Positions 1 to 16,850 of a stretch of 16,850 nucleotides of DNA are shown piece after piece. Each line of letters starts with the position of its first letter. Positions within the stretch are counted from its first letter, which is position 1. The notes under the pieces are model-generated. The model was not told where the DNA came from. It did no database searches and saw nothing but the letters and a program-made list of their open reading frames with translations. Made by a program: the position numbers and the translations under genes. This stretch comes from a virus: IMG/VR virus record IMGVR_UViG_3300045988_162729; one strand, 5' to 3'.

Positions 1-326
1 CACAGAACACATCACGCTGAGAAACTCCTGCACGCCCCACACGGACATTTCCCCAATTTTGTACGCCAAGCAAAGACAAACATGTGTTCGAATTTTTTGT
101 GCGGATGAGGGTGAACGTATGGTTGGTGATGAGGCTGCGATCGAACGGCTGGTTGTGGTGAACAAGAGTTTGGGTTGTGATGGTGGAGTCATGGATTGTT
201 AAATTTTTAACATATGAATAGTTGTTCAGGTGTTGCTTAAATAACAAGAGGTTTGGTATAGTTAGAAACTATTAGACATTTATATGAATGTGAGGTATAA
301 TGGAAGCATAAAAGGAACTGGTAAAT
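1..326. repeat. Left inverted terminal repeat (ITR), 326 bp
   Basis: Bases 1-326 are the exact reverse complement of 16525-16850, compared by eye. Identity ends at 327 (g, versus a in the mirrored right end). Terminal repeats together with a protein-primed polB indicate a linear genome with terminal-protein-capped ends. Confidence 0.95.
273..301 (+). promoter_or_regulatory. Left early promoter inside the ITR (TAGACA-17 nt-TATAAT)
   Basis: The -35 TAGACA lies at 273-278, followed by a 17-nt spacer and a consensus -10 TATAAT at 296-301. It points inward toward the first CDS at 351. Confidence 0.6.
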
Positions 327-350
327 GTATATTAGAAAAGGAGAATTAAT

Positions 351-695
351 ATGAGAAACAACGTTATTGCAGTAGGAAAAGAAATTATTAAGTGTTTAGA
401 AAGTAACAACGAAGTAAAGGCATATCAAGTATTGTATAATTGTGAAGACAAATTAAAATATGATGAAATTAATTTGTTAAACTATGCAATGTTAAAATGG
501 TCTGATTTTATTAATGGTGAAATTTCATATAGTGATATGGACTATATAAAAGAAAGTTACGCTCCTGGTTATATGTCAAGAAAAGAGGGTGCAATGGAAA
601 AGCTGTACATAGGTAGGTATGGTGTAGGAATTGCAGTTCATAAGCCCGCGTTCAACACAAGTAGATATCATGTTATTTTGTATTATGTATTTTAA
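351..695 (+). CDS. Hypothetical early protein (114 aa)
   Basis: ORF with a strong RBS (aaaggag) 6 nt upstream of the ATG. It is the first gene downstream of the ITR promoter. I recognise no motif. Confidence 0.7.
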   Translation: MRNNVIAVGKEIIKCLESNNEVKAYQVLYNCEDKLKYDEINLLNYAMLKWSDFINGEISYSDMDYIKESYAPGYMSRKEGAMEKLYIGRYGVGIAVHKPAFNTSRYHVILYYVF

Positions 696-718
696 TATTA
701 AAAAGTGAGGAATATACC

Positions 719-1366
719 ATGAAAAAAGATTATTCGTTAGACTGGAATTTAGTTAGAACAATGAACAAAACTGATTTATATAAATTGGCAAAACGATATG
801 CTAATGCATATAATCGCCGTGTGGAAAATATGCTTGCATCTGAATTAAAAGAGTCATACGCATATAAAAAAATATCATCATTATTAGGTGCTCCTTATCT
901 TAAAAAATACAAAGGAAAATCAAAAACAATGAAACGGGTTCTTGTTTCTAACGTAACCTCAAAACTTTCAATAGAGGATTTGAGATCGGCAGTTAGTTCT
1001 TTTGAAAAATTTCTAACTCACGAAACATCAACATCAAAAGGACTTAGACAAGCAAAAGAGCGTCGCTATGAATTAGCACGTAAATATATAGGTAAATCAG
1101 CATCCGATCGTGAAGCAAAAGATTTTCTTACATTTCTAGGTAATACAATAAATGCAACAAAAGAGTTTGCACCAAGCGACACGGTACTAGAGGCAATTTC
1201 AAAATCATATGATAAAAATAATTATGATTTAGAAAAATTAAAAGAAGAATATGAAGAATTTAAGCGATCTGGTGATTCATTTGCTGAATGGATTAGGCAT
1301 ATGGATATTGATTATAAAGAGCAAGGATTAGAATTTTCAAATACAATGCATAAAATGGGATGGTAG
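719..1366 (+). CDS. Putative terminal protein (215 aa), assigned by position only
   Basis: ORF with RBS gtgagga. It sits immediately upstream of, and is nearly coupled to, the protein-primed DNA polymerase gene, as with phi29 gene 3 and gene 2. It is Lys/Arg-rich with an acidic C-terminal part. I see no direct sequence similarity to the phi29 terminal protein. Confidence 0.45.
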   Translation: MKKDYSLDWNLVRTMNKTDLYKLAKRYANAYNRRVENMLASELKESYAYKKISSLLGAPYLKKYKGKSKTMKRVLVSNVTSKLSIEDLRSAVSSFEKFLTHETSTSKGLRQAKERRYELARKYIGKSASDREAKDFLTFLGNTINATKEFAPSDTVLEAISKSYDKNNYDLEKLKEEYEEFKRSGDSFAEWIRHMDIDYKEQGLEFSNTMHKMGW

Positions 1367-1370
1367 TTGA

Positions 1371-3557
1371 ATGATTTTAAATAGACCGGAATCAGTCGAT
1401 GAAAAAAGATTATCTTCTATTGTTTACAATGAAGATATTAATATATCTGAAATAATAGAAGAAAATACGAATAACACGATTTCAAATGGAAAGAAAAGAC
1501 GTGTTTTGTTATCTGATTTTGGAACTATTGATACAGAGACAACTACTATTCGTGCTTGTTCGGTAAACAATCCATTTGATTTCCCGATATCTGTAACATA
1601 CTTATATCAAATTACACTTTTTGATTATAATTTTATTTTTAGAACTTCTGATGATTTTTCAAGTTTTCTTAACACAATAGTTGTTGAGTTAAACAAGCAT
1701 AATGCTACATTAGTATTTTACGTTCATAATTTATCATTTGAATTTCAGTTTTTTAAAGCATTTTTGAATATAGATTCAGATTCAGTATTTGCTACAAAAC
1801 CGCGTTCTATAATGAAATTTACAACTGATGATGGAGCATTAGAATTTCGATGTAGTTATTATTTGTCTAATATGAGTCTTGAAAAATTTACAGAAAATTT
1901 CTGTGATGAAACATATCGCAAAGATAAAGACTTAATTGACTATGAGATTGAACGTTTTCCATGGACTGAATTATCAGACGAGGAATTATATTACTCCTTA
2001 ATGGACACTATTACATTGTATCATGCCATAAAAAATATTATGGAAAAAGATGGCGATAATATAAAAACGATTCCGGCTACTAGCACAGGTTATCCGCGTC
2101 GTGATGGTCGTATTGCTTGCATTGGTAAATCATCTTATCACAGAACAGATGAACAGAAAAAATATGTTAAATTATTTCATAAAGTACGAATTGATAAACA
2201 TATGATGGAACTTGCGGAAAAAGCTTTTCGTGGTGGAAATACGCACGCAAATAGATTCTATGCAAATCAGCATCTATATAATATTGGAAGTTATGATTTC
2301 TCTAGTTCCTATCCTGCTGTTATTGTTGCATCCGATTATTTTGCTATGTCAAAACCAGTTGAGTGTACAAAAGATGTACAAGACTTAGACTCGTTAAAAT
2401 ACTATGCAAATAAGTATTGGATGATTTTACGTATATTATTTAAGGATATTGAAGTTAGAGACTATAAAAAAGTCGTATGCCCGTATATATCAAAATCAAA
2501 TGTTTTGTATGATCGAAAAGAAGATGGAATATATGATAACGGAAGAATTTTAAAACAGAATGGATATGTAGAGATAACGTGTCTCGGAAATGAACTGCCT
2601 ATTATAATGGGACAATACAAAGGAAGTTTTAAAGTTATAGAGGCATACTACAGCCATAAAGGATATTTACCAGATTTATTACGTAAAACAGTGCTTAATT
2701 ATTTTCATACCAAAACAGAATTGAAAGGAGTACAAGGAAAAGAATACGAATACATGAAATCAAAAAACAAGCTAAATTCCTTTTATGGAATGATGGTTGA
2801 AAAAATGGTAAAACCGATTATCGAATATTCGCTCGGTAAATGTATTATGAGACAACCGACTGAAGAAGAAATAGAAGATGCAATTGCTAAATTCTATTCG
2901 AATCGTTCAAACAAATATTTGTGCTTTCTGTGGGGTGTATCTATTACGGCAGTAGCGCGTGTTAGGTTGCAGGAAATGATCGATATTGTAGGTTCTGATT
3001 TTGTTTATTGTGATACTGATTCATGTAAAATGAGAAGTCCAGAAAAATATATAAAGAAATTTGATGAATATAACGAAGAATGGATTAAAAAAGCTGATAA
3101 TTGTGGATTGCAGTATTATGCATATACAAAAAATAATGAAAAACAAATTTTAGGAATTGCAGATCGTGAATCAGATTATAAAGAATTTATTACGCTAGGT
3201 GCAAAGAAATACGCTGTTATTAATCAGAAAAATGTACTTGAAATTACAATTGCAGGTGTTCCTAAAAAAGCAGGTGCATTATTATTAGGAAATATAGATA
3301 ATTTCAAGCCGGGATTTGTTTTTAAAACAAGTGATTCTGATTCTAATTCATTGCGTCAATTATGGAAGAAAACATTATTTTATAACGATGATATTAATGA
3401 GGTATTAACAATAGATGGTAAACAATTAAACATTACATCTTATGTAGCACTTGAGCGTACAACCTATGAGTTAAACATAACAGACGAGTATCAAGACTTA
3501 ATACAAGAAAATTACTTAAATACTTTAATGGTGCAAGATGATGTATACTTTAATTAG
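1371..3557 (+). CDS. Protein-primed family-B DNA polymerase (728 aa)
   Basis: All signature motifs are visible. Exo I is IDTETTT (phi29 DFETTT). Exo II is VHNLSFEFQF (phi29 HNLKFDGAF). Exo III is YYSLMDTITL. Motif A is YDFSSSYP (Dx2SLYP). Motif B is KNKLNSFYGMM (Kx3NSxYG). Motif C is VYCDTDS. The KxY motif is GAKKYAV. Confidence 0.95.
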   Translation: MILNRPESVDEKRLSSIVYNEDINISEIIEENTNNTISNGKKRRVLLSDFGTIDTETTTIRACSVNNPFDFPISVTYLYQITLFDYNFIFRTSDDFSSFLNTIVVELNKHNATLVFYVHNLSFEFQFFKAFLNIDSDSVFATKPRSIMKFTTDDGALEFRCSYYLSNMSLEKFTENFCDETYRKDKDLIDYEIERFPWTELSDEELYYSLMDTITLYHAIKNIMEKDGDNIKTIPATSTGYPRRDGRIACIGKSSYHRTDEQKKYVKLFHKVRIDKHMMELAEKAFRGGNTHANRFYANQHLYNIGSYDFSSSYPAVIVASDYFAMSKPVECTKDVQDLDSLKYYANKYWMILRILFKDIEVRDYKKVVCPYISKSNVLYDRKEDGIYDNGRILKQNGYVEITCLGNELPIIMGQYKGSFKVIEAYYSHKGYLPDLLRKTVLNYFHTKTELKGVQGKEYEYMKSKNKLNSFYGMMVEKMVKPIIEYSLGKCIMRQPTEEEIEDAIAKFYSNRSNKYLCFLWGVSITAVARVRLQEMIDIVGSDFVYCDTDSCKMRSPEKYIKKFDEYNEEWIKKADNCGLQYYAYTKNNEKQILGIADRESDYKEFITLGAKKYAVINQKNVLEITIAGVPKKAGALLLGNIDNFKPGFVFKTSDSDSNSLRQLWKKTLFYNDDINEVLTIDGKQLNITSYVALERTTYELNITDEYQDLIQENYLNTLMVQDDVYFN

Positions 3558-3562
3558 GCAAT

Positions 3563-3664
3563 AAAAAAACTCCGGTGCTATTAGCATTGCCAACCACGGC
3601 ACAAGATACAGTAGAACTTAATCCATGGTATCTGTATCAAGCTTGATCTAATAGTCACCGGATT
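3563..3664 (-). ncRNA. Candidate structured small RNA (phi29 pRNA-like architecture); strand uncertain
   Basis: A 14-bp closing helix pairs 3571-3584 (tccggtgctattag) with 3648-3662 (ctaatagtcaccgga), leaving one bulged base at 3655. It encloses 63 nt with three possible hairpins. These are 3588-3601 (loop aaccac), 3604/3605-3633/3638, and the 3636-3647 palindrome atcaagcttgat. On the minus strand the helix is followed directly by T7 (complement of 3563-3569). It is also preceded by a possible promoter, TTGCAT (3699-3694), 17 nt, TG-extended TACTAT (3676-3671), which would place the transcription start at the base of the helix. Confidence 0.35.
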
Positions 3665-3709
3665 GATTATATAGTATCATATTTTTTTAAAAAATGCAAG
3701 ATAAAAAGC

Positions 3710-3738
3710 TTGACATTTTAAGATAATAGTTATATACT
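3710..3738 (+). promoter_or_regulatory. Consensus sigma-A type promoter (TTGACA-17 nt-TATACT)
   Basis: TTGACA lies at 3710-3715, followed by exactly 17 nt and TATACT at 3733-3738. It is 50 nt upstream of the CDS at 3788. The hexamers and the TATACTATA extension are identical to those of the promoter at 5634. Confidence 0.75.
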
Positions 3739-3787
3739 ATAGTTGTAACAAAGAAAAAAATAAAAATTAAAAAGGAGAACAAATTAT

Positions 3788-4144
3788 ATGGCATTAAAAG
3801 TAAAAGAAACTACATTTTCAGCGAGAGACACACTTCGAATTACATCTTCTACAGATGCAGTACCGATGAAAGATGTGCCGGATGGAACAGAACTTCATTA
3901 CATCGGATATGTAAAGACAGAAATTACAAATGAATCATCAGGTGAAATTTTTGATTCGATTGTAATTAAAACAGAAGATGGCAGTTTATATGCAACACGA
4001 TCAGCTTCCTTTATGAGAGCATTAGAGGAAATTCTTGAAACAATTGCTGATTTTGGGGAAGATGATTTAGAACCAATTATTTTAACAGTTAAACATCTTA
4101 AGAGTAAGAATGGAAATACATTTGTTACATGTCAGTTAGCATAA
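3788..4144 (+). CDS. Probable single-stranded DNA-binding protein, phi29 p5-like (118 aa)
   Basis: Strong RBS (aaaggag). Size and motifs resemble phi29 SSB p5 as I recall it. VPDGT matches LPDGT, EDGSLYA matches ADGSLYS, and the C-terminal NGNTFVTCQL matches KGNVFFSLQL. This rests on memory-based similarity, not a search. Confidence 0.55.
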   Translation: MALKVKETTFSARDTLRITSSTDAVPMKDVPDGTELHYIGYVKTEITNESSGEIFDSIVIKTEDGSLYATRSASFMRALEEILETIADFGEDDLEPIILTVKHLKSKNGNTFVTCQLA

Positions 4145-4163
4145 AAGAAAGGAAGTAAGTAAA

Positions 4164-4379
4164 ATGAAAAGAACAGTAGTAGAATATAATTATAGTGTAA
4201 CGATGGAAAACGGTGAAACATTTAATATTGTATCATCGAAATCAATTAGTGTAAGAAAACTGAATAAAGTTTGTAAAGATAAAGGCAGTGAATATAAGAC
4301 CGCTGTTTGTACTACAGAATCACATACCTACGAATTATCAGATGAAAAGTTTATTGAATTAGCAACTAGAATTGACTAA
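4164..4379 (+). CDS. Hypothetical protein (71 aa)
   Basis: ORF with RBS aaaggaag upstream. It is tightly spaced after the SSB-like gene and followed by a terminator. Confidence 0.65.
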   Translation: MKRTVVEYNYSVTMENGETFNIVSSKSISVRKLNKVCKDKGSEYKTAVCTTESHTYELSDEKFIELATRID

Positions 4380-4406: not shown

Positions 4407-4440
4407 AAAAAGCGGCTAGTGGAAATCAGCCGCTTTTTAT
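4407..4440 (+). terminator. Intrinsic terminator
   Basis: The stem pairs aaaaagcggct (4407-4417) with agccgcttttt (4428-4438) around a 10-nt loop. A T-run, tttttatttttg, follows. The GC-rich core is agcggct/agccgct. Confidence 0.75.
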
Positions 4441-4443
4441 TTT

Positions 4444-4459
4444 TGTTTCACGTGAAACA
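4444..4459. promoter_or_regulatory. Palindrome copy 1: TGTTTCACGTGAAACA
   Basis: Perfect 16-bp palindrome. It is followed one nt later by the RBS agaaagg and ends 16 nt before the ATG at 4476 (packaging ATPase). Confidence 0.9.
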
Positions 4460-4475
4460 CAGAAAGGCAAATATT

Positions 4476-5576
4476 ATGTATTTTGATGAATTTAATAATT
4501 TTAAAGTTATGCCACCATATCACGACGGTAGAAAGTTATTATCTTTAAAAGATTTAAATAAAGAGAAACCAGAAATTTATATTGATACTACTAATCGTAC
4601 AGCAGGTAAAACAACGTTTTACAATGGATATTTGGTTGATAGATTTTTACAATTTGGCGAAAAATTTTGTCTATTGTACAGAAAAAAATATGAGTTAGAG
4701 ATCGTAGAAAGAACATTTTTTGATGATATAGGAAAAATTTTTTTCAGCGGATTGGAAATGATATCAGAATCTAAAGCAAATGGTGCTATTGATTTTTTGT
4801 ACTTAAATCAAGTTGGCGAAAAAGAGTCTAATAAAAAACAGTGTGGATATGCGATATCAATTAGTGGTGCTGATGAAATAAAGAAAATGTCACACCTGTT
4901 ATCTGATGTTGTTAGGATTTTATTTGATGAATTTCAATTGGAATCAAGGCGTTATCTTAAAAATGAATTACAGAGTGTTATTTCTATACACGACTCAATT
5001 GCGCGTGGTGCAGGACAACAAACTAGATATGTTCCATTAATTCTTGTCGGAAATTTACTTGATTTATATAATCCCTATTATGAAGCAATGGGAATATCAA
5101 TGCGGCTTGATATCAAAACAAATTATATGCGTGGTAATGGATGGGTACTAGCGCAAGGTTTCAACGCAGAAGCGGCAAGTAAAATAAAACAGACAGGTTT
5201 TCATAAAGCATTTTCATCGCATGACTACACAGCGGTATCTGAAAAGAAAGAATACTTATTCGATGAAACAAATAATATCAGAACTGATATTCCAAACCGG
5301 GGTTCTTATGTAGGTACTATTTCCTCAAAAAATAAAAAATACGGTGTCCGGTATATATGGGAATGTGAATGTTTTTATGTAAGCAAAAAATCAGATCCAT
5401 CGTGGGTAACTGCTATAGCCGCTACTGAATCAGATATAGCAGAAGATTCGATTTTCATTAGAAGATCAAAACTGAGAGAAAAACTAGAAAAAGCATTGCA
5501 TACAAATAATTTGTACTATGACAGTATGGAGAGTAAAAAGGCGTCATTATCATTAATATATAACAAAGAAATTTGA
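4476..5576 (+). CDS. DNA encapsidation (packaging) ATPase, phi29 gp16-like (366 aa)
   Basis: Walker A is NRTAGKTT and Walker B is ILFDEF. The size is typical of gp16-type ATPases. I place the start at ATG 4476 (RBS agaaagg at 4461-4467) rather than the ORF-track 4419, which lies inside the upstream terminator hairpin. Confidence 0.85.
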   Translation: MYFDEFNNFKVMPPYHDGRKLLSLKDLNKEKPEIYIDTTNRTAGKTTFYNGYLVDRFLQFGEKFCLLYRKKYELEIVERTFFDDIGKIFFSGLEMISESKANGAIDFLYLNQVGEKESNKKQCGYAISISGADEIKKMSHLLSDVVRILFDEFQLESRRYLKNELQSVISIHDSIARGAGQQTRYVPLILVGNLLDLYNPYYEAMGISMRLDIKTNYMRGNGWVLAQGFNAEAASKIKQTGFHKAFSSHDYTAVSEKKEYLFDETNNIRTDIPNRGSYVGTISSKNKKYGVRYIWECECFYVSKKSDPSWVTAIAATESDIAEDSIFIRRSKLREKLEKALHTNNLYYDSMESKKASLSLIYNKEI

Positions 5577-5582
5577 TATAGT

Positions 5583-5618
5583 AAAAAGTTATAACATAAT
5601 TTTTGTTATAACTTTTTT
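5583..5618 (+). terminator. Probable, weak, AT-rich intrinsic terminator
   Basis: The stem pairs aaaaagttataac (5583-5595) with gttataacttttt (5605-5617) around a 9-nt loop, with T6 at 5613-5618. It lies directly after the ATPase stop codon. Confidence 0.5.
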
Positions 5619-5633
5619 CTATAATAATTGATA

Positions 5634-5662
5634 TTGACAAAAACTATAACAAGAAGTATACT
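5634..5662 (+). promoter_or_regulatory. Consensus sigma-A type promoter of the lysis/structural operon (TTGACA-17 nt-TATACT)
   Basis: TTGACA lies at 5634-5639, followed by a 17-nt spacer and TATACT at 5657-5662. It is 40 nt upstream of the holin ATG. Confidence 0.75.
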
Positions 5663-5701
5663 ATAAGTATAAATTATATAGGAAAGGAGATGTTATAAGA
5701 G

Positions 5702-6052
5702 ATGAATGCAGTTATGGTAGCAATTACATTTAATGCATTAGACATATTAACTGGAATGATAGCGGCAATTCGTTCAAAAGAAATTCAGTCCTCAAAATTA
5801 CGAGATGGATTATTTAAGAAAGCCGCTTTTATTTTGTGCTATTTTCTAGCGTGGTTAATTGACACATACGGACATACAGTAGGTTTTTCAATTGGGGTGC
5901 CAGTCTTACCGGTAATTGTGTTGTACGTCGTAACAACAGAATTAGTGTCAATTATTGAAAATATTACAAAGATTAATCCTGATTTACTAGGTTCTAAATT
6001 ACTTGAAATGTTTCACGTGAAACACGACACAGAAGAAGGTGAGACTAAATAA
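5702..6052 (+). CDS. Holin, TcdE/Phage_holin_4_1-like (116 aa)
   Basis: The N-terminus NALDILTGMIAAIRSKEIQSSKLRDGLFKKAAFIL and the later ELVSIIENITKI match the family pattern ..LD.ITG...A.....SSK.G..G..KK ... E..SI.EN. There are three hydrophobic segments. The gene lies directly upstream of the endolysin with a 1-nt overlap (taATG). Confidence 0.85.
   Translation: MNAVMVAITFNALDILTGMIAAIRSKEIQSSKLRDGLFKKAAFILCYFLAWLIDTYGHTVGFSIGVPVLPVIVLYVVTTELVSIIENITKINPDLLGSKLLEMFHVKHDTEEGETK
6009..6024. promoter_or_regulatory. Palindrome copy 2: TGTTTCACGTGAAACA (inside the holin 3' end)
   Basis: Perfect copy, translated as MFHVKH in the holin frame. It ends 27 nt before the endolysin ATG at 6052. Confidence 0.9.
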
Positions 6053-6765
6053 TGGGAAGCATTGCAAAGGCAGTTAAGTTTATGATAGAAATTGCAAATG
6101 ACGATTTACATGGATATGATCAAGTGGAAAGAAATGGCCCTGATTATGACTGTTCATCTCTAGTTTCAACGGCATTATATCAAGCAGGTTTTAATATTTC
6201 TCCTTATTCTTGGACTGGTAACATGGAAGTACAATTGAGAGCATGTGGTTTCACTGATTGTAAACCGCCTTGGAAAGCAGGTGACATACATCTCAATAGT
6301 AAACATCATGTATGTATGTCAATAAATGAGAATCAAATTGCGCAAGCATCTATTAACGAAAACGGTTATGTGACTGGTGGGAAAACAGGAGATCAAACTG
6401 GTAAAGAAATAATTATTAGAAATTACTATGAGTATTCAAAAGGATGGGATTTTCATTTAAGATACACTGGTGAACATAATCATAAGACACTAGAAGAAAT
6501 CGTAGATGAAGTGATAGCAGGAAAATGGGGAAATGGTGATTCCAGAGTTACCGCCTTACAGAATGCAGGTTTTAATCCAAACAGTGTTCAGACTGAGGTA
6601 AATAAAAAATTAAGAAAAACTGATGAAAAGAGGAAATCAGATATAGCAAAAGAAGTATTAGAAGGGAAATGGGGAAATGGAACTGATAGAATCGTAAATT
6701 TAACAAAAGCAGGATATGAATATGAAGAAATACAAAATATTGTAAATCAGATGTTGCAGAGGTAA
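6052..6765 (+). CDS. Endolysin: N-terminal Amidase_5/NlpC-P60-type cysteine amidase/peptidase plus two CW_7 (Cpl-7-type) cell-wall-binding repeats (237 aa)
   Basis: NGPDYDCSSLVSTALYQAG resembles the Dp-1 Pal motif DGPDSYDCSSSMYYALRSAG (catalytic Cys), with HHVCM downstream. Two repeats, GKWGNGDSRVTALQNAGFNPNSVQTEVNKKL and GKWGNGTDRIVNLTKAGYEYEEIQNIVNQML, match the CW_7 pattern GxWGNGxxRxxxLxxAGYxYxxVQxxVN. Confidence 0.9.
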   Translation: MGSIAKAVKFMIEIANDDLHGYDQVERNGPDYDCSSLVSTALYQAGFNISPYSWTGNMEVQLRACGFTDCKPPWKAGDIHLNSKHHVCMSINENQIAQASINENGYVTGGKTGDQTGKEIIIRNYYEYSKGWDFHLRYTGEHNHKTLEEIVDEVIAGKWGNGDSRVTALQNAGFNPNSVQTEVNKKLRKTDEKRKSDIAKEVLEGKWGNGTDRIVNLTKAGYEYEEIQNIVNQMLQR

Positions 6766-6769
6766 TATA

Positions 6770-7849
6770 ATGCCAGATATTAATAGATCGTATTCTTGGG
6801 CAATTGAAACATGCAATGCACCAAACGTCGGTTACTCAAATTTGTACCGAAATCAGCAAAAAGTAAATGGGATAACATATTATGATTGTAGTTCATTTAT
6901 TAATTTTGCATTAGTTGCAGGTGGATTTGACACACCATCATACGCACCAAACTATAGTGCTTTTACAACATATAATGAAGCAAATGCACTATTGCAACTT
7001 GGATTTGAAGAAGTAAATGCGAATGGTGAATATTTACCCGGGGACATTGGACTTAATCCCACGCACACAGAAATATGTTACACAGGTGGACAAGGAAAAG
7101 GTGTTTTTATGGGCGCTCATACTGCAAATGCATCTCTGGACAACCAAGTGTGTATTGGTAGTTCTAGCGGAGATATTAATTACCAAAGAAGTTTTCAGCG
7201 TCTATTCCGCTATGGCGGTGGAGCATCACTTATTGGTTCTAGCATTTATGTTTGTGCGGCAATTGCGGGTAATATGTGGCAAGAATCCGGGATAAATCCC
7301 GGAATTTGGGAAAATTTAAGTGAGGGTACTTGGACTGATTTGCTTAAAGGATATGGTCTAGGACAGTGGACAAATACAGGTGGTGATACGCATGGAAGAT
7401 TATATAAGCTTCATACATGGTTAAATGAAAATGGCTATTCCGATGACGATGGAGACGGTCAAGTAAAATACATTAGTGTAGAAAATGTATGGTATAAGCA
7501 AGGCGAAGCAATGGCATTTGATAACTTAAATGCATTTCTTACTACTGATGTAGAGGATATTGAATTACTAACACATGCATGGAATATTGGATGGGAAGGA
7601 ATTCACGATGAAACATGGGATTTAAGGGTTCAATACGCAAGGGATTGCTACCAATTCATTTTACAAAATGCGAATGATACTTCAATCAATAAGTGGATAA
7701 GTGGTAATAGATATCTTAGTGCTGGAGAAAGATATAATAATGCTGTTATGTTATATCGTTCATTAAGCGCAGGCGGTGGCGGTGGTGGAAAACCAACGAA
7801 AAAGAAAAAGAATATGCCTGCATGGATGAAAATAAGATATAAAATTTAA
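6770..7849 (+). CDS. Probable virion (tail)-associated peptidoglycan hydrolase (359 aa): NlpC-P60/Amidase_5-like domain plus phage-tail-lysozyme-like domain
   Basis: The N-terminal ITYYDCSSFINFALVAGGF is a paralogue of the endolysin catalytic motif. The central AAIAGNMWQESGINPG...GYGLGQWT matches the phage tail lysozyme pattern (GN...ES...G.GL.QWT). The C-terminus is GGGGGGKPTKKKKNMPAWMKIRYKI. Functionally it is analogous to phi29 gp13. Confidence 0.7.
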   Translation: MPDINRSYSWAIETCNAPNVGYSNLYRNQQKVNGITYYDCSSFINFALVAGGFDTPSYAPNYSAFTTYNEANALLQLGFEEVNANGEYLPGDIGLNPTHTEICYTGGQGKGVFMGAHTANASLDNQVCIGSSSGDINYQRSFQRLFRYGGGASLIGSSIYVCAAIAGNMWQESGINPGIWENLSEGTWTDLLKGYGLGQWTNTGGDTHGRLYKLHTWLNENGYSDDDGDGQVKYISVENVWYKQGEAMAFDNLNAFLTTDVEDIELLTHAWNIGWEGIHDETWDLRVQYARDCYQFILQNANDTSINKWISGNRYLSAGERYNNAVMLYRSLSAGGGGGGKPTKKKKNMPAWMKIRYKI

Positions 7850-7865
7850 TGTTTCACGTGAAACA
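7850..7865. promoter_or_regulatory. Palindrome copy 3: TGTTTCACGTGAAACA
   Basis: Perfect copy that abuts the RBS agaaaggag. It ends 18 nt before the ATG at 7884. Confidence 0.9.
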
Positions 7866-7883
7866 AGAAAGGAGTTTATAAAA

Positions 7884-8165
7884 ATGGCAATTCGGACAAC
7901 AGAAGAACTACTTAATATGATTCGTGATAGAACAGGAGATAGTGACGATGATTTAGCATTTTTAGAAGATGCGTCAGATACACTGATCTCATTATCAGAA
8001 TCAGAAAATTGGAAAGAAAAATATGAAACAAATGATGCAGAATGGAGAACCAGATATAAGGAACGCTTTTTTAATAAAGAAGAAAAAGATGATAAAGAAA
8101 AAAACGATAAAGAAGATGATGCAAATTATAAAAAAACATATGATGATTTATTTATTTTTTCTTAA
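7884..8165 (+). CDS. Probable scaffolding protein (93 aa)
   Basis: A small, very acidic, Lys/Glu/Asp-rich, predicted-helical protein immediately upstream of the major capsid gene. This matches the size and position of phi29 gp7. Confidence 0.6.
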   Translation: MAIRTTEELLNMIRDRTGDSDDDLAFLEDASDTLISLSESENWKEKYETNDAEWRTRYKERFFNKEEKDDKEKNDKEDDANYKKTYDDLFIFS

Positions 8166-8181
8166 TTAGAAAGGAGTTAAA

Positions 8182-9585
8182 ATGGCAAGACGAGTAGCAG
8201 TAAATACACTTAGTGCATCAACAATTGATATCTTAAATGTTATAAGACAGAATGCATCGTATGATTATCAGCAGAATGTCCCTGTTGTAACTAAATCAAA
8301 TGATATTCCAAAGGTTGGGGAGGTAATCTATGGAACGCCTGCATTTGCGAATCAGTTTATCAATGCTCTTGTAAATAGAATTGCAATTGTAAGAACGCAG
8401 AGTGCAACTTTTAACAATCCATATTCCATTCTTAAAAAAGGATATTTGGAATTTGGCGAAACAGTAGAAGATATCTTTGTTTCAATTGCAAAAGCTGTTG
8501 ATTTTAGCGCTGAGAAAGCAAGTGCAAGGGAATTCAAACGTACAATTCCAGATATTCGATCTGCATTTCATGTAATGAATTGGCGCGTAATGTACCCAGT
8601 AACTATTCAGGATGAAGATTTGAGACAGGCGTTTTTGTCTATGGATGGCGTAACATCATTAATTGCAAAAATTGTTGATTCTGTTTATACGGCGGCAGAA
8701 TACGACGAATTTTTGATGTTTAAATATTTACTTATTAAGTCAATTAGCCATGGCAAAATGAAACCTGTTGCGCTCGGTGCTACAATGAATGATGCCGCAG
8801 TCGAATTCAGAGGAGCATCAAATATTTTACCTTTTATGTCAAGCGAGTACAATGAAGCGGCTGTTAAAACAAATACGCCTAAAGATCGGCAGGTCATATT
8901 TATGGATGCCCGTTATAATGCGCAGTATGATGTTAATGTATTGGCATCTGCATTTAATATGGATAAAGCAGACTTCATGGGACGCCTTTTCCTAATTGAC
9001 AATTGGTCAGATTTTGACAATGATAGGTTTGATATTATTCGCGAAAATTCAGATGGAATTGAGGAAATTACCGTTGATGAACTTGCACTTATGGCAAAAG
9101 TAAAGGCTGTAATCCTTGATGAAAATTGGTTTCAGGTGTATGATAACAATAATAAATTTACTGAAAAATATGTAGCATCGGGAATGTACTGGAATTATTT
9201 TTACCATACTTGGAAAACAATTTCGTCTAGTCCATTTGCAAATGCAATTGTTTTTGTCGAATCAGATGCAACTATCACACCTTTTGCATCAATTACGGCT
9301 GAAATTGTTGATAAATCAATTACAGATGAAGCTATTACAATTACAATTCAGGCAGAACATGACGGAGCAACTTTACAGCCCAACGTTGTTAATTTTGTAC
9401 AGACAGAAGAACTTACAACAAATGGAATCGCTGTGCATAAATATGGTGCATTGTTAATTCCGGCAGGAAAAGCAAGTACAAACATTAAGCTTGAGGCTAT
9501 CATCGATGGTGTTACTTATAAGGCGACAACAAATATTACAAGTGCGTCTAATGTTGGTGCAACAGTAACTATGAACAAGCAGTAA
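8182..9585 (+). CDS. Major capsid protein (467 aa), phi29 gp8-like position and size
   Basis: Strong RBS agaaaggag. The gene follows the scaffold gene, and its size is close to phi29 gp8. The C-terminal roughly 100 aa look like an Ig-like (BIG2-type) domain, with alternating T/I/V beta-strand patterns. The call rests mainly on synteny. Confidence 0.75.
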   Translation: MARRVAVNTLSASTIDILNVIRQNASYDYQQNVPVVTKSNDIPKVGEVIYGTPAFANQFINALVNRIAIVRTQSATFNNPYSILKKGYLEFGETVEDIFVSIAKAVDFSAEKASAREFKRTIPDIRSAFHVMNWRVMYPVTIQDEDLRQAFLSMDGVTSLIAKIVDSVYTAAEYDEFLMFKYLLIKSISHGKMKPVALGATMNDAAVEFRGASNILPFMSSEYNEAAVKTNTPKDRQVIFMDARYNAQYDVNVLASAFNMDKADFMGRLFLIDNWSDFDNDRFDIIRENSDGIEEITVDELALMAKVKAVILDENWFQVYDNNNKFTEKYVASGMYWNYFYHTWKTISSSPFANAIVFVESDATITPFASITAEIVDKSITDEAITITIQAEHDGATLQPNVVNFVQTEELTTNGIAVHKYGALLIPAGKASTNIKLEAIIDGVTYKATTNITSASNVGATVTMNKQ

Positions 9586-9602
9586 AATATTTTTTAAAAA
9601 GG

Positions 9603-9617
9603 TGTTTCACGTGAAAA
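9603..9617. promoter_or_regulatory. Palindrome copy 4 (imperfect): TGTTTCACGTGAAAA
   Basis: One arm is degenerate (C to A at the penultimate arm position). It lies 26 bp upstream of copy 5 in the same intergenic region. Confidence 0.8.
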
Positions 9618-9628
9618 ATTAAAAAATG

Positions 9629-9644
9629 TGTTTCACGTGAAACA
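9629..9644. promoter_or_regulatory. Palindrome copy 5: TGTTTCACGTGAAACA (18-bp palindrome gtgtttcacgtgaaacac, 9628-9645)
   Basis: Perfect copy that ends 26 nt before the ATG at 9671. The RBS agaaaggag lies downstream. Confidence 0.9.
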
Positions 9645-9670
9645 CATAGAAAACATAGAAAGGAGTTAAT

Positions 9671-10078
9671 ATGGCAAAACAGATTGATTATCCTGCTGAC
9701 ACGGTAGATTCTAACGGCAAAGCATGGAAAACAGTAGGTGAAAATATAAGAAATGGTGCAAAGAGCGACTCTTTAACAACAGCAGTTATCGATGAACTTT
9801 TAAATGAGCTGTATCCCGTCGGCTATGTTTTTCTTGGTGTTTTACCAAAATTGTTACAAGAAAAATTTGTCTGGAAACCGGGAATAGGACAGTCATATAG
9901 AAGTCGCGTGTGTGTTTTGAATACGGAAGCTCCGGTTGGCGATATTATTAGGCATCTGTCTGATAGAACAGCCGTGGTACTTAGCAATGAAGATGTCACT
10001 AAATTTAACGCCGCTACGGGATTAAACATTGAAGCATTAGGTGTAACGGGAATTCCAGTCTGTTATCGGGTGGCGTGA
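9671..10078 (+). CDS. Hypothetical structural-module protein (135 aa)
   Basis: ORF with RBS agaaaggag. It lies between the capsid and tail-knob genes, the slot occupied by the head-fibre gene 8.5 in phi29. I recognise no motif. Confidence 0.65.
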   Translation: MAKQIDYPADTVDSNGKAWKTVGENIRNGAKSDSLTTAVIDELLNELYPVGYVFLGVLPKLLQEKFVWKPGIGQSYRSRVCVLNTEAPVGDIIRHLSDRTAVVLSNEDVTKFNAATGLNIEALGVTGIPVCYRVA

Positions 10079-10079
10079 T

Positions 10080-11630
10080 ATGATTATTTCTCCAGAATCA
10101 AAAATTTATATATTATCAAATATTCCAATTGATAACACGTATGATAACACATTATATTTTACAAATGCTGAAAACCAAAATAACTATTTTTTAAGTAAAG
10201 CAAAATACAATCGTTCAAATTATACTTATCAACGTAGTAATTCAAATACAATACGTGTTGATATCAGAACTGAAAATTTGTATGATTGTAATTATCTTTT
10301 ATTTCAGAATAGTGCATTTGGAACAAAATGGTTTTATGCATTCATTACATCGGTAGATTATGTAAACAATGAAACATCCGATATACATTACGAGATTGAT
10401 GTAATGCAAACTTGGTTTTTTGATTATGCGATGGAACAGTGTTTTGTTGAACGTGAGCACACAGCAAGCGATGTAATTGGGGAACATATTGAGGCTGAAC
10501 CTGTTTCAACGGGTGAATATGTATTTAACGATTATTCGCAAATAATGCTTATGAGAGAAATGGTTGTTTGCGTTGCAATTGTTGATACAGATGGTGAATC
10601 AGCCGGAACTTTATACGATGGAATATACGGTGCAGCACAATTATTTGTATATGATTCTACCGATGTTTCTAGTATCAATGGAAAAATAAATGAATACACA
10701 CAAAAACCAGATTCTATATTAGGAATATATATGTTCCCAAAATCATTTTTACTTAATAGTACAATTCCAGAAAATCATTTAATTGAACAGAGAACAAGTG
10801 CAACATCTACAGTAGTATTGCAAAATGCATTAACAGGAACAGAAACACTTGACGGATATTTACCAAGAAATAAAAAATTATACACTTATCCGTATAATTT
10901 TTATCACGTCGATAATGCAAGTGGAAATGAATTATCATTGCGATATGAATTTTTTGATAATTTAAGACCTGTTGTCGAAATCTCGGGAACTATAACACAA
11001 CCTGTTACCGCAATTTTGAGACCATGCTCATATAAAGGTGTAGCATCATATAGTGACCTTGGTGGATGGACTACTCTCAATACAGAGACTTTGCAAATGA
11101 GCAACTATCCGATTTGCAGTTGGAATGTTGACGCATATCAGGCATGGGTAGCACAGAATTCAATTCCGCTTGCACTTGGCGTCGCGTCAAAAACAGCACA
11201 AGGTTTTGTTTCTGGTGCTGGGGTTGGTGGAATGGTAAGTTCTGCAATTGGACAAGTAACAAATATTGTAAGTCAGGCATACACTGCTAGTATATCAGCA
11301 GACATTGCAAAGGGAAATCTTAATAACGGTGGTGCAAATGTAGCAAACGGAAAACAGCAATTTTATGGCGGTAGATGCAGTATTACTGCTCAATATGCAA
11401 GAATTATTGATGATTTTTTCACAAGATTCGGATATGCAGTAAAACGAGTAAAACTTCCAAATAGAGTTGCGCGACCGCATTGGAATTATGTAAAGACAAT
11501 TGATTTTTCCGCAAAAGGTAGTATACCATCAGACGATATGAAAAAAATTTGTAGCATATACAATAATGGAATCACTTTTTGGAAAAATCCAAACGAAGTC
11601 GGTAACTACAGTCTAGATAATTCAATTTAA
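10080..11630 (+). CDS. Tail knob (distal tube) protein, phi29 gp9-like (516 aa)
   Basis: The N-terminal region matches phi29 gp9 as I recall it. LYDCNYLLFQNSAFGTKWFYAFITSVDYVNNETSDIHYEIDVMQTWFF compares with [48 protein letters not shown]. Confidence 0.9.
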   Translation: MIISPESKIYILSNIPIDNTYDNTLYFTNAENQNNYFLSKAKYNRSNYTYQRSNSNTIRVDIRTENLYDCNYLLFQNSAFGTKWFYAFITSVDYVNNETSDIHYEIDVMQTWFFDYAMEQCFVEREHTASDVIGEHIEAEPVSTGEYVFNDYSQIMLMREMVVCVAIVDTDGESAGTLYDGIYGAAQLFVYDSTDVSSINGKINEYTQKPDSILGIYMFPKSFLLNSTIPENHLIEQRTSATSTVVLQNALTGTETLDGYLPRNKKLYTYPYNFYHVDNASGNELSLRYEFFDNLRPVVEISGTITQPVTAILRPCSYKGVASYSDLGGWTTLNTETLQMSNYPICSWNVDAYQAWVAQNSIPLALGVASKTAQGFVSGAGVGGMVSSAIGQVTNIVSQAYTASISADIAKGNLNNGGANVANGKQQFYGGRCSITAQYARIIDDFFTRFGYAVKRVKLPNRVARPHWNYVKTIDFSAKGSIPSDDMKKICSIYNNGITFWKNPNEVGNYSLDNSI

Positions 11631-11637
11631 AAAATAT

Positions 11638-11653
11638 TGTTTCACGTGAAACA
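11638..11653. promoter_or_regulatory. Palindrome copy 6: TGTTTCACGTGAAACA
   Basis: Perfect copy, 31 bp upstream of copy 7 in the same intergenic region. Confidence 0.9.
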
Positions 11654-11668
11654 TAATATATGTTTTTT

Positions 11669-11684
11669 TGTTTCACGTGAAACA
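11669..11684. promoter_or_regulatory. Palindrome copy 7: TGTTTCACGTGAAACA
   Basis: Perfect copy that ends 17 nt before the ATG at 11702. The RBS agaaagg follows. Confidence 0.9.
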
Positions 11685-11701
11685 AAAAAGAAAGGTTAAA
11701 A

Positions 11702-12577
11702 ATGGCAAGAAAGAAAACATTATTTGATGAAAGTCTTACGATGAATCAACAGACATATTATTTTTATATAGATCGGTTAACTGAATTGTCAATTTCGATG
11801 TTTAAATGGGAAAATTTGCCAGACACGGTTGATAGCAGGTATATAGAATTGTCACTGTTTAAAAATGGGAATTCTATTTACTTTAACGATGATGTAATCG
11901 GAAATTTATGTCTGGATTGTGTACCATCAGGAAATTTTGATGTATACGGAAATCCGACTGGAAGAAGAGCGTATTCGTCATATAATAACTATTCGAAAAT
12001 ACTTGATGAAACAAACAGTGTAATTATATGGAATAATATGCTTAGAACAAACAGTTATCCGGCTGTTGAAATGTTTTCGAAAAAACTATATATACTTGAC
12101 AGAATTATTGACGTTAATAGCAATGCACAAAAAACGCCAGTATTATTACAAGGAACTGATAAACAGAGATTAACATTGCTTAATTTGTACAAAGAATTTG
12201 ACGGAAATACACCTTTTATTTTTGGGGATAAAAATTTAGATTTAGGGGCAATTACAGCAATAAATACAAATGCACCTTACATATCTGATAAAATATACGA
12301 TCTTAAAAGTAAAATTTGGAATGAAGCACTGACATATCTTGGAATTAGTAATGTGACTATTACGAAAAAAGAACGAATGATAACAGATGAAGTTGCACGA
12401 GCACAGGGTGGAACTATAGCATCAAGATACAGTAGACTACAATCAAGAAAAGATGCAGTGGAAAAAATAAACAATATGTTTGGAACAAATATTAAAGTAT
12501 CTTATAAAGAAGATTCTGATAATGTTTCACGTGAAACATTAGATCAAGACGAAAAAGGTGGTGAACTTTTTGAGTAA
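11702..12577 (+). CDS. Portal / upper collar (connector) protein, phi29 gp10-like (291 aa)
   Basis: There are clear matches to phi29 gp10 as I recall it. FKWENLPDTV matches FEWENLPPTI. NSNAQKTPVLLQG matches NQNAQKTPVLIRA. TNAPYISDK matches TDAPYVVDK. KKERMITDEV matches KKERMVTDEV. Confidence 0.95.
   Translation: MARKKTLFDESLTMNQQTYYFYIDRLTELSISMFKWENLPDTVDSRYIELSLFKNGNSIYFNDDVIGNLCLDCVPSGNFDVYGNPTGRRAYSSYNNYSKILDETNSVIIWNNMLRTNSYPAVEMFSKKLYILDRIIDVNSNAQKTPVLLQGTDKQRLTLLNLYKEFDGNTPFIFGDKNLDLGAITAINTNAPYISDKIYDLKSKIWNEALTYLGISNVTITKKERMITDEVARAQGGTIASRYSRLQSRKDAVEKINNMFGTNIKVSYKEDSDNVSRETLDQDEKGGELFE
12523..12538. promoter_or_regulatory. Palindrome copy 8: TGTTTCACGTGAAACA (inside the portal 3' end; 18-bp palindrome 12522-12539)
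   Basis: Perfect copy, translated as NVSRET in the portal frame, which differs from the frame used by copy 2. It ends 19 nt before the GTG start at 12558. Confidence 0.9.
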
Positions 12578-15685: not shown

Positions 15686-15709
15686 ATGAGGGGCATTAAT
15701 GCCCCTCAT
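15686..15709. terminator. Bidirectional intrinsic terminator between convergent operons
   Basis: Perfect 24-nt palindrome atgaggggcattaatgcccctcat, giving a GC-rich 10-bp stem and a 4-nt loop. It is flanked by an A-run (ataaaa) upstream and a T-run (catttt) downstream. It sits between the + appendage gene and the - gene 15696-15944. Confidence 0.75.
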
Positions 15710-15944
15710 CATTTTGTAATACTTGCTTAATTATATTTAATTCTCTATCACCATACATTATAAACCAAATGTTATATCTATATGACGATATTAAATTTAA
15801 ACCATATAGATTTTCTATAACATCATGAAGTATTCGCATCTTATTATAATAATAATTTTTAAACGTTAGTGTTGAAATATAATTTTCACATTTAAGTAAT
15901 GCATTTGAATATTCATCAAAAATTTTATCTGTCATTTTTACCAT
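15696..15944 (-). CDS. Hypothetical right-end early protein (82 aa, or 79 aa from ATG 15935)
   Basis: Minus-strand ORF and last gene of the leftward unit. The RBS aggaa abuts ATG 15944, so the internal ATG at 15935 (9-nt spacing) may be the true start. I recognise no motif. Confidence 0.6.
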   Translation of the reverse strand: MVKMTDKIFDEYSNALLKCENYISTLTFKNYYYNKMRILHDVIENLYGLNLISSYRYNIWFIMYGDRELNIIKQVLQNDEGH

Positions 15945-16009
15945 TTCCTATGTACGTTATCCCAAAAAATACACCTAACATTATACCAAAAAACATCGAA
16001 ATAATACAT

Positions 16010-16222
16010 TCAACAGCAGTGAACATTATAATCATCCTTTCTTAATTCAATTGATCTTATTAAAATATCGTCTTTTTTAAATAATACAATACAATCTTCC
16101 TTAAATAATAGATTTCTATAATGACCATATACACTTTTCCAAGGGTATTTAAAATTTATTTCAGTAACGGAACGCATTATCAATTCTTTATTTCTATTTG
16201 TTAATAATTCTATTTCGTACAT
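16010..16222 (-). CDS. Hypothetical right-end early protein (70 aa)
   Basis: Minus-strand ORF with RBS aggtga upstream. It overlaps the upstream gene by 13 nt, suggesting translational coupling. I recognise no motif. Confidence 0.65.
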   Translation of the reverse strand: MYEIELLTNRNKELIMRSVTEINFKYPWKSVYGHYRNLLFKEDCIVLFKKDDILIRSIELRKDDYNVHCC

Positions 16223-16506
16223 AATCTTTCACCTAACTTCCAATAATATAATATGTCTCTAGTTAATACTATAGCAAGCATATTTTGAGTCTTAAAAGTA
16301 ACTCTAATGCAAGGCTGAGAATATCTGTCTTTTAATGTAATGATATATTCATTATTATAGATATCAATATATAACTTTCTATTTTCAAGCCACATATCAT
16401 ATACATAAAAAGTTGCTTTTATATCAGATTTTGATAATAAAGTATACTTAAGGTCTAATGTTGCCAAAACTGATTCAACTACATTCATTGCTGTTTTTAA
16501 TATCAT
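16210..16506 (-). CDS. Hypothetical right-end early protein (98 aa)
   Basis: Minus-strand ORF with RBS agaaaggag (complement of 16515-16523). It is the first gene downstream of the right ITR promoter. I recognise no motif. Confidence 0.7.
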   Translation of the reverse strand: MILKTAMNVVESVLATLDLKYTLLSKSDIKATFYVYDMWLENRKLYIDIYNNEYIITLKDRYSQPCIRVTFKTQNMLAIVLTRDILYYWKLGERLCTK

Positions 16507-16524
16507 ATAAGTTCTCTCCTTTCT

Positions 16525-16850
16525 ATTTACCAGTTCCTTTTATGCTTCCATTATACCTCACATTCATATAAATGTCTAATAGTTTCTAACTATACCAAAC
16601 CTCTTGTTATTTAAGCAACACCTGAACAACTATTCATATGTTAAAAATTTAACAATCCATGACTCCACCATCACAACCCAAACTCTTGTTCACCACAACC
16701 AGCCGTTCGATCGCAGCCTCATCACCAACCATACGTTCACCCTCATCCGCACAAAAAATTCGAACACATGTTTGTCTTTGCTTGGCGTACAAAATTGGGG
16801 AAATGTCCGTGTGGGGCGTGCAGGAGTTTCTCAGCGTGATGTGTTCTGTG
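16525..16850. repeat. Right inverted terminal repeat (ITR), 326 bp
   Basis: Exact reverse complement of 1-326. Confidence 0.95.
16550..16578 (-). promoter_or_regulatory. Right early promoter inside the ITR (mirror copy of 273-301)
   Basis: Because it is part of the exact ITR, the same TAGACA-17 nt-TATAAT promoter is present on the minus strand. It points inward at the three leftward genes. Confidence 0.6.

Follow-up and report, generated by a model that had tools for sequence, protein, structure and literature searches.

ParABS homologues have been reported in 12 of 12 gut bacteria of the OMM12 set, Clostridia included, and the same study, which gives 1-20 parS sites per chromosome, uses the exact 16-mer TGTTTCACGTGAAACA as the parS consensus to locate centromeres, again with Clostridia among the species covered. 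Phages can carry such sites as well. According to PMC2731898, citing Meijer et al. 2005, there are five parS sites in the phi29 genome, whose segregation into the prespore involves Spo0J. Here we describe IMGVR_UViG_3300045988_162729, a viral stretch of 16,850 nucleotides (referred to as the window, meaning the whole stretch that was analysed), in which the same 16-mer is repeated in front of the late genes. Judged by its sequence, this motif is the canonical chromosomal parS, i.e., the 16-bp centromere palindrome that nucleates the ParB (Spo0J) dimer, and its eight copies are very probably parS sites recognised by the ParB of the host. An earlier note on this DNA had held that no such element was described for phi29-like phages, which is contradicted by the five sites of phi29, used together with the Spo0J of the host according to the paper mentioned above. 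The overall explanation that we favour, where host ParB is hijacked through parS and the phage genome is segregated or captured in the spore, is given a probability of about 0.65. As for the benefit to the phage taken separately, our analysis would put segregation or spore entrapment at even odds.

Eight copies of a chromosomal parS site

The window was searched for TGTTTCACGTGAAACA tolerating up to three mismatches, with 200 shuffles as a control. Seven exact copies and one copy with a single mismatch were found (Table 1), against a chance expectation of 0.15, and no further match within three mismatches is present in the window; none of the 200 shuffles reached eight copies. The hexamer CACGTG is confined to these eight copies, whose flanking sequences are unrelated to one another. 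Both the coordinates of the copies and the absence of CACGTG elsewhere in the window had been given correctly in the earlier note, and so had the six distances from copy to start codon, even though the start of the lower-collar gene is probably 12570.

All copies fit the parS consensus TGTTNCACGTGAAACA, seven being exact matches to TGTTTCACGTGAAACA and one having a single mismatch, and the full-text literature matches to the exact 16-mer, among the matches listed, all deal with ParB/parS or with the origin or organisation of the chromosome. The exact 16-mer, often in multiple copies, is also found in at least 120 IMG/VR contigs with a GC content from 30% to 72%, and it occurs on either strand relative to the genes across phages. 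The presence of the same 16-mer across 30-72% GC argues for the site of a universally conserved host protein, and not of a private phage regulator. An adapter or assembly artefact, which the blunt centre between CAC and GTG might suggest, was considered and rejected, since the copies lie in frame within open reading frames (ORFs), are kept across independent assemblies and cultured phages, and correspond to a known biological site.

No ORF of the window matches ParB or ParA in PHROGs, Pfam or NCBIfam. An autonomous parA-parB-parS partition cassette was also looked for, and with all ORFs scanned neither ParB nor ParA was found beside the sites. With no ParB detected in the phage, its sites are most likely bound by the chromosomal ParB of the host. 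An operator for a dimeric phage regulator, as first proposed, belongs to the right class, that of palindromes bound by dimeric proteins, but this proposal missed parS itself. Operators of this type, or recombination sites at module boundaries, would suit the palindromic form of the site, the several orphan early ORFs, the location of the sites at gene boundaries, and the mosaic nature of the genome, whose replication module is shared only with L123, a strain ~96% identical to the window. However, no DNA-binding family was detected in the orphan ORFs with PHROGs, Pfam, NCBIfam or PDB sequences. These ORFs are private to the window and L123, yet the identical 16-mer is present in unrelated phages, and in a tblastn search of all window proteins against 230 loci no protein co-occurs with the motif. 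Regarding recombination, for which no support was found, the breakpoint of the replication/structural mosaic makes no distinctive use of the sites. Hence, neither operators nor recombination sites have more than a minimal chance of being the right explanation.

Table 1. Positions of the parS copies, and of the genes and signals that surround them, in the window
Feature	Position	Strand	Remarks
parS copy 1, exact	4444..4459		directly after the T-run of the hairpin 4412-4443; 16 nt before the ATPase start 4476; same in L123
parS copy 2, exact	6009..6024		in the 3' end of the holin ORF (final 15 codons), translated MFHVKH; ends 27 nt ahead of the endolysin start 6052
parS copy 3, exact	7850..7865		abuts the stop of 6770-7849; 18 nt before the start 7884 of the scaffold-like gene, whose Shine-Dalgarno sequence is directly 3'
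parS copy 4a, 1 mismatch (C15A), TGTTTCACGTGAAAAA	9603..9618		upstream half of tandem pair after the major capsid gene
parS copy 4b, exact	9629..9644		downstream half of the pair, its first base 26 nt from that of 4a; ends 26 nt ahead of the 135-aa gene (9671)
parS copy 5a, exact	11638..11653		upstream half of tandem pair at the tail-knob/portal junction
parS copy 5b, exact	11669..11684		31 nt start to start after 5a; 17 nt before the portal start 11702
parS copy 6, exact	12523..12538		in the 3' end of the portal ORF, ~13 codons from its stop, translated NVSRET; the lower-collar start follows closely (19 nt to 12558; 31 nt with TTG 12570 as start)
Promoter-like match	273-301	+	sigma-70-like, 11/12, TAGACA-17-TATAAT; inward-pointing, in terminal repeat
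Type-B DNA polymerase	1371-3557	+	profile searches
Promoter-like site	3710-3738		TTGACA-17-TATACT; ahead of the SSB gene
phi29-type SSB	3788-4144	+	profile searches
Terminator-like hairpin	4412-4443		closes the early operon; copy 1 begins at the very next base
Packaging ATPase	start 4476	+	
Promoter-like site	5634-5662		TTGACA-17-TATACT; ahead of the holin gene
Holin	5702-6052	+	
Endolysin	start 6052	+	first of two lysins
Second lysin gene	6770-7849	+	
Scaffold-like gene	start 7884	+	
Major capsid protein		+	followed by the 135-aa gene
135-aa gene	start 9671	+	followed by the tail knob
Tail knob		+	
Portal (upper collar)	start 11702	+	
Lower collar	start GTG 12558 in ORF list, TTG 12570 likelier	+	followed by the appendage gene
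Appendage gene		+	
Three small ORFs	right end of the window	-	
Promoter-like match	16578-16550	-	sigma-70-like, 11/12, TAGACA-17-TATAAT; inward-pointing, in terminal repeat

Selection and placement of the sites

In the comparison with L123, the seven exact copies show no change over 112 nt, whereas 36 of the 560 nt in their 40-nt flanks (6.4%) have changed (P ~6e-4). The parS sites are under purifying selection, and the claim that the motif is a selected element finds support both in this result and in the shuffles. The imperfect copy at 9603 has decayed further in L123, to two mismatches. A broader set of relatives consisted of 82 loci with ~75% capsid identity, where parS was counted with up to one mismatch. 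At least one site is present in 30 of these 82 relatives, mostly one or two and at varying positions, and seven or eight are reached only in the window and L123. Around 55% of the distinct sites of the clade are outside long ORFs, compared with 10% of random positions, and ~36% are within 40 nt of a plausible start, compared with 9%.

The junction between the tail-knob and portal genes measures 12-24 nt (median 20) in 79 of 81 relatives and contains a Shine-Dalgarno sequence only. A length of 68-71 nt, with two parS and a spacer in the gap, is seen in the window and L123 alone. As the junction is long only where parS sit, these sites represent insertions into tight junctions, and the gain and loss of parS appear to be frequent.

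The gap 3' of the capsid gene is 45-75 nt long in 63 of the 82 relatives and contains a GC-rich stem-loop in the six examples inspected (L124, L127, and L128 are such relatives). In the window (9586-9670), the tandem parS pair stands where those relatives have the GC-rich hairpin. This would suit a role at the RNA level, with the palindromes folding ahead of each ribosome-binding site of the polycistronic late transcript and serving its processing, its stabilisation at the 5' or 3' side, or the modulation of translation, and the tandem pairs, this one included, can indeed fold into hairpins of 15-17 bp and -23 kcal/mol (z between -5.6 and -7). However, such strong folding is trivial because each copy is self-complementary, and single copies reach only -4.6 to -4.7 kcal/mol, values equalled by shuffled sequences (at -4.7 kcal/mol, z is between -0.4 and -1), which speaks against the RNA hairpin role once envisaged for them. 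Neither the exact match to the ParB consensus, nor its identity over 30-72% GC, nor its occurrence on either strand is accounted for by an RNA element, which we hold to be quite improbable as the explanation of the motif, whereas a secondary RNA role may exist for the tandem pairs. No U-tract follows the tandem pairs on the sense strand, and the view that the motif is neither a terminator nor a promoter is upheld.

The late region (4444-12538) contains all eight copies, and from each of them a start codon is reached within 52 nt downstream. That the element always precedes start codons, as the earlier note put it, is true in this sense, but two of the copies (6009 and 12523) are inside coding sequence, the other six being intergenic, and the pattern derives largely from the geometry of tight junctions. 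Likewise, the copies separate most of the late cassettes from one another, but not the holin gene (5702), whose upstream gap of 125 nt has a sigma-70-like promoter match (5634-5662) and is the only late intergenic gap of at least 34 nt without parS. Since the late genes are compact and on the same strand, an intergenic insertion has a stop codon on one side and the Shine-Dalgarno sequence of the following gene on the other, and the placement upstream of starts is mostly geometric. According to the favoured explanation, the vicinity of ribosome-binding sites would be the place where a 16-bp site fits, either in such a gap or in a C-terminal tail that is dispensable. The palindrome has two open frames, both of which are used by the two coding copies, and each of these copies is located in a C-terminal tail, that of the portal protein being hypervariable and acidic in relatives. 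Many relatives, and also the Hungatella phage CH17P1, have parS at a place comparable to that of copy 3, before a small gene that precedes the capsid gene.

The site at the end of the portal gene deserves separate treatment. Its position and reading frame are shared by the window (12523), phi29 (10445), Nf (10042), and B103 (10120), with parS ~13 codons before the portal stop in all four phages, read as NVSRET in the window and NVSRGT in the other three. An ancestral parS at the portal/lower-collar junction, shared with phi29, was considered and rejected, given that the portal tails of 80 closer relatives are acidic and unrelated. Because these 80 relatives lack parS at that place, the site would be convergent and not inherited.

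Host ParB and its proposed role in segregation and spore capture

In our scan, phi29 has TGTTTCACGTGGAACA at 10445, 15903, 17243, and 18760, i.e., four copies, and Nf and B103 have two each. TGTTTCACGTGGAACA is the reverse complement of TGTTCCACGTGAAACA, the B. subtilis form of parS. Extending the scan to 24 cultured phi29-like phages, with up to one mismatch, parS was found in 9 of the 13 phages of spore-formers and in 1 of the 11 phages of non-spore-formers. Fisher's exact test, applied without phylogenetic correction, gives p = 0.0045. In the first set, the sites belong to phi29, Nf, and B103 (four, two, and two, as above), phiCPV4 (seven), and DK1, CH17P1, CS229P2, CI461P1, and CI130P1 (one each), whereas GA-1, PumA1, Karezi, and LPCPA6 have none. 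In the second set, the Glutamicibacter phage Voltaire carries a tandem pair, and no parS is present in Cp-7, C1, P68, asccphi28, Av-1, two Bifidobacterium phages, and the Curtobacterium, Microbacterium, and Arthrobacter phages.

The seven sites of the C. perfringens phage phiCPV4 (JQ729991), at 6109, 6134, 8009, 10087, 10112, 13120, and 13146, include three exact copies and four with one mismatch. Apart from one isolated site, they are arranged as three tandem pairs with a spacing of 25-26 bp, and none is within a gene. Two pairs and one member of the third are directly upstream of a ribosome-binding site, that of the packaging ATPase among them. The parS sites of phiCPV4 are not annotated, and the paper describing this phage makes no mention of them and reports that this phage encodes a SpoVG-like protein (PMC3362512). 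Across unrelated viral contigs, we found 23 distinct tandem parS pairs, with a spacing mostly of 16-42 bp start to start and modes at ~24-26 and 29-34. To our knowledge, such close pairs are not typical of chromosomal parS.

By analogy with phi29, the favoured explanation would work as follows. Host ParB would nucleate on the parS sites of the phage and load ParB-CTP clamps onto its genome, and the small linear DNA, capped by terminal proteins, would then be handled like a host origin region by the ParABS/SMC machinery. In this way, the infecting genome could be captured in the forespore, or in the daughter cells, of a spore-forming Clostridia host, and capture in the forespore would give it a dormant, protected state. 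Accumulation of ParB in vitro requires closed DNA or roadblocks. The presence of eight sites in 8 kb, with two tandem pairs, could plausibly offset the run-off of clamps from a short linear DNA, and the covalently attached terminal proteins might, more speculatively, serve as end caps.

Several observations weigh against this explanation. Of the features of phi29-type entrapment, the protein-primed linear genome and the host-type parS are present, but the Spo0A boxes, which in that system suppress the lytic cycle from early and late promoters and from near the genome ends, are not enriched in the window (TGTCGAA, 2 vs 1.95 expected; TGNCGAA, 6 vs 6.3), and the promoter-like sites at 273, 3710, 5634, and 16578 have no such box close by. 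No parS was found in 52 of the 82 relatives or in the closest GenBank relative (MT835814), which indicates that the sites are dispensable for the lytic cycle. Voltaire infects a non-spore-forming actinobacterium and has its perfect pair at 8742 and 8761, 19 bp apart, in the gap before the major tail gene; clusters of parS are also present in unrelated terminase-type phages, and both cases imply that spore entrapment is not the sole use of phage parS. The bacterial-genome matches to related contigs are metagenome bins only, although these, being mostly of Clostridia, hint weakly at a host from this group. Finally, there is a leftover preference for spots just before ribosome-binding sites, coding copies included, which tolerance to insertion explains only in part.

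The terminase-type clusters come from three related IMG/VR contigs of 50-54% GC that are not phi29-like, with genes for a large terminase, a small terminase similar to that of Sf6, and a portal similar to that of SU10. In each contig there are three to five exact parS in ~0.8 kb of apparently non-coding DNA beside the terminase genes (L023, 2657-3444; L063, 10535-11462; L075, 240-961), and no ParB was detected among the three, two, and two ORFs scanned from them, respectively. In viral contigs of 68-72% GC, two or three exact, AT-rich parS were observed within 0.5-1.5 kb (L090 at 276, 374, and 895; L035 at 3235 and 3758). The capture of host parS by phages seems to extend to high-GC, actinobacterial-type hosts.

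The leftover preference for positions before ribosome-binding sites makes a role of ParB as a roadblock or silencer conceivable. In this case, host ParB and its sliding clamps, located before nearly every late cistron, would keep the structural and lysis genes off in the dormant or sporulating cell, which is compatible with segregation or spore capture. The confinement of all eight copies to the late region and to the 52 nt before starts would be expected from this role. The same layout is found independently in phiCPV4, L158, and other contigs, both coding copies also lie just before the ribosome-binding site of the next gene, and, unlike in phi29, there are no Spo0A boxes available as repressor sites. 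A CTP clamp of the KorB type has been described in gene control, and KorB, a ParB homologue, silences plasmid genes. However, the sites of phi29, Nf, B103, CI130P1, and several relatives are deep in genes or after the last gene, and where genes are tightly packed on one strand, an intergenic position is confounded with one upstream of a start. In addition, chromosomal ParB silences transcription only weakly in Bacillus. Silencing is considered unlikely. The same doubt applies to its broader version, according to which the dense intercistronic tandem parS arrays, evolved repeatedly in small protein-primed phages of spore-forming Clostridia (the window, phiCPV4, and several IMG/VR lineages), would constitute a repressor-free dormancy switch where ParB-CTP both silences the late operon and carries the genome into the forespore, so that 'strictly lytic' gut phages could survive and be transmitted within spores.

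The number of sites could also be read as a decoy. Hundreds of replicating genomes with eight sites each would titrate host ParB and disturb the segregation of the origin, SMC loading, ParA(Soj)/DnaA, or the sporulation checkpoints. The site density, far above that of chromosomes with their 1-20 sites per genome, is in line with this, as are the recurrence of tandem pairs in many phages and the fact that parS is not limited to phages of spore-formers or to a single phage type. On the other hand, most relatives have only one or two sites, with which a decoy would be weak until late in replication, and a general decoy role does not predict the association with spore-formers. We therefore regard it as less likely still than silencing.

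If host ParB does bind these sites, a whole group of small phages of gut Clostridia regarded as 'strictly lytic' would ride on the chromosome segregation of their host, with the spore as the most likely destination. This would bear on their persistence in the gut, on their spread from person to person, and on their survival of oxygen and disinfectants, and also on the therapeutic use of phages against C. perfringens, since phages of the phiCPV4 type carry the same arrays. The count of host-type parS would be a simple sequence marker to predict lifestyle from metagenomes, and these genomes would represent a natural test case for the behaviour of ParB-CTP clamps on short linear DNA.

Genome context and comparison with known systems

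The window is a complete phi29-like genome of 16.85 kb, with 32.5% GC and perfect inverted terminal repeats of 326 bp (1-326 and 16525-16850). A megablast search of the whole window against GenBank phages gave no nucleotide match, and its relatives are recognised only at the protein level. The capsid protein is 71-75% identical to those of two unannotated human-faecal contigs and 23-45% identical to those of phi29-like phages of Clostridia, Bacillus, and others. For the lower-collar gene, TTG 12570 is a likelier start than GTG 12558, as the resulting N-terminus MSKYTTEVRY resembles MSSYTMQLRTY of phi29 gp11. A gene start at ~4388 on the minus strand was considered and discarded, with only nine codons encoded. 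The 135-aa gene that follows the capsid gap is present in only eight relatives.

Each terminal repeat contains an inward-pointing match to a sigma-70 promoter (Table 1), which suggests symmetric early promoters at both genome ends. The promoter-like sites ahead of the SSB and holin genes have hexamers identical to each other. Among the 82 capsid relatives, the replication and early modules (1-4379 and 15696-16850), including the 114-aa, 215-aa, and 71-aa ORFs, the DNA polymerase, and the three right-end ORFs, are common only to the window and L123, and the same type of polymerase is found in 15 other parS-bearing contigs. With a replication module of such limited distribution and a widespread structural module, the genome is a mosaic.

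Compared with phi29, Nf, and B103, the phage described here has the same type of protein-primed linear genome of ~17-19 kb, the same set of structural genes, host-type parS without a phage ParB, and one parS at the portal/lower-collar junction in the same frame. The parS/Spo0J principle was reportedly shown for phi29 by Meijer et al. in 2005. As parS in phi29-like phages is already known, the sites of the window do not represent a new kind of element. The arrangement is different, though: phi29 has four or five sites of the B. subtilis variant, TGTTCCACGTGAAACA, mostly within genes or after the last late gene, and uses Spo0A boxes, whereas the window has eight sites, seven of them perfect palindromes, with six intergenic, two tandem pairs, and all just upstream of cistrons. 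Chromosomal ParABS centromeres share with the window the identical 16-bp consensus and the clustering of multiple sites within a few kb. They differ from it in that the window belongs to a virulent-type phage with no parA or parB in cis, one site per kb, and pairs 26-31 bp apart.

The parABS systems of the plasmid-prophages P1 and N15, and KorB-OB of RK2, combine their own ParB with private repeated palindromes and serve segregation, KorB being also involved in gene silencing; the window, in contrast, has the site of the host chromosome and does not encode a ParB. A short motif repeated many times across a phage genome, often near gene starts, is also known from mycobacteriophages, as the stoperators of cluster A and the start-associated sequences of cluster K. 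Both of these are asymmetric and specific to their phages, the stoperators being bound by the phage's own repressor and the start-associated sequences being tied to translation starts. In contrast, the motif of the window is a perfect palindrome equal to the host site, is present in unrelated phages, and in phi29, Nf, and CI130P1 is found deep in genes.

phiCPV4 is similar to the window in its seven intergenic parS, its tandem pairs, and its spore-forming Clostridium host, but it belongs to the Guelinviridae and shares only ~25% capsid identity. Since phiCPV4 is from a different family, the layout of the arrays arose independently in both phages. What the window adds to the known cases is the extreme density of sites, a tandem intercistronic layout convergent with that of phiCPV4, and the extension of parS arrays to uncultured phages of gut Clostridia.

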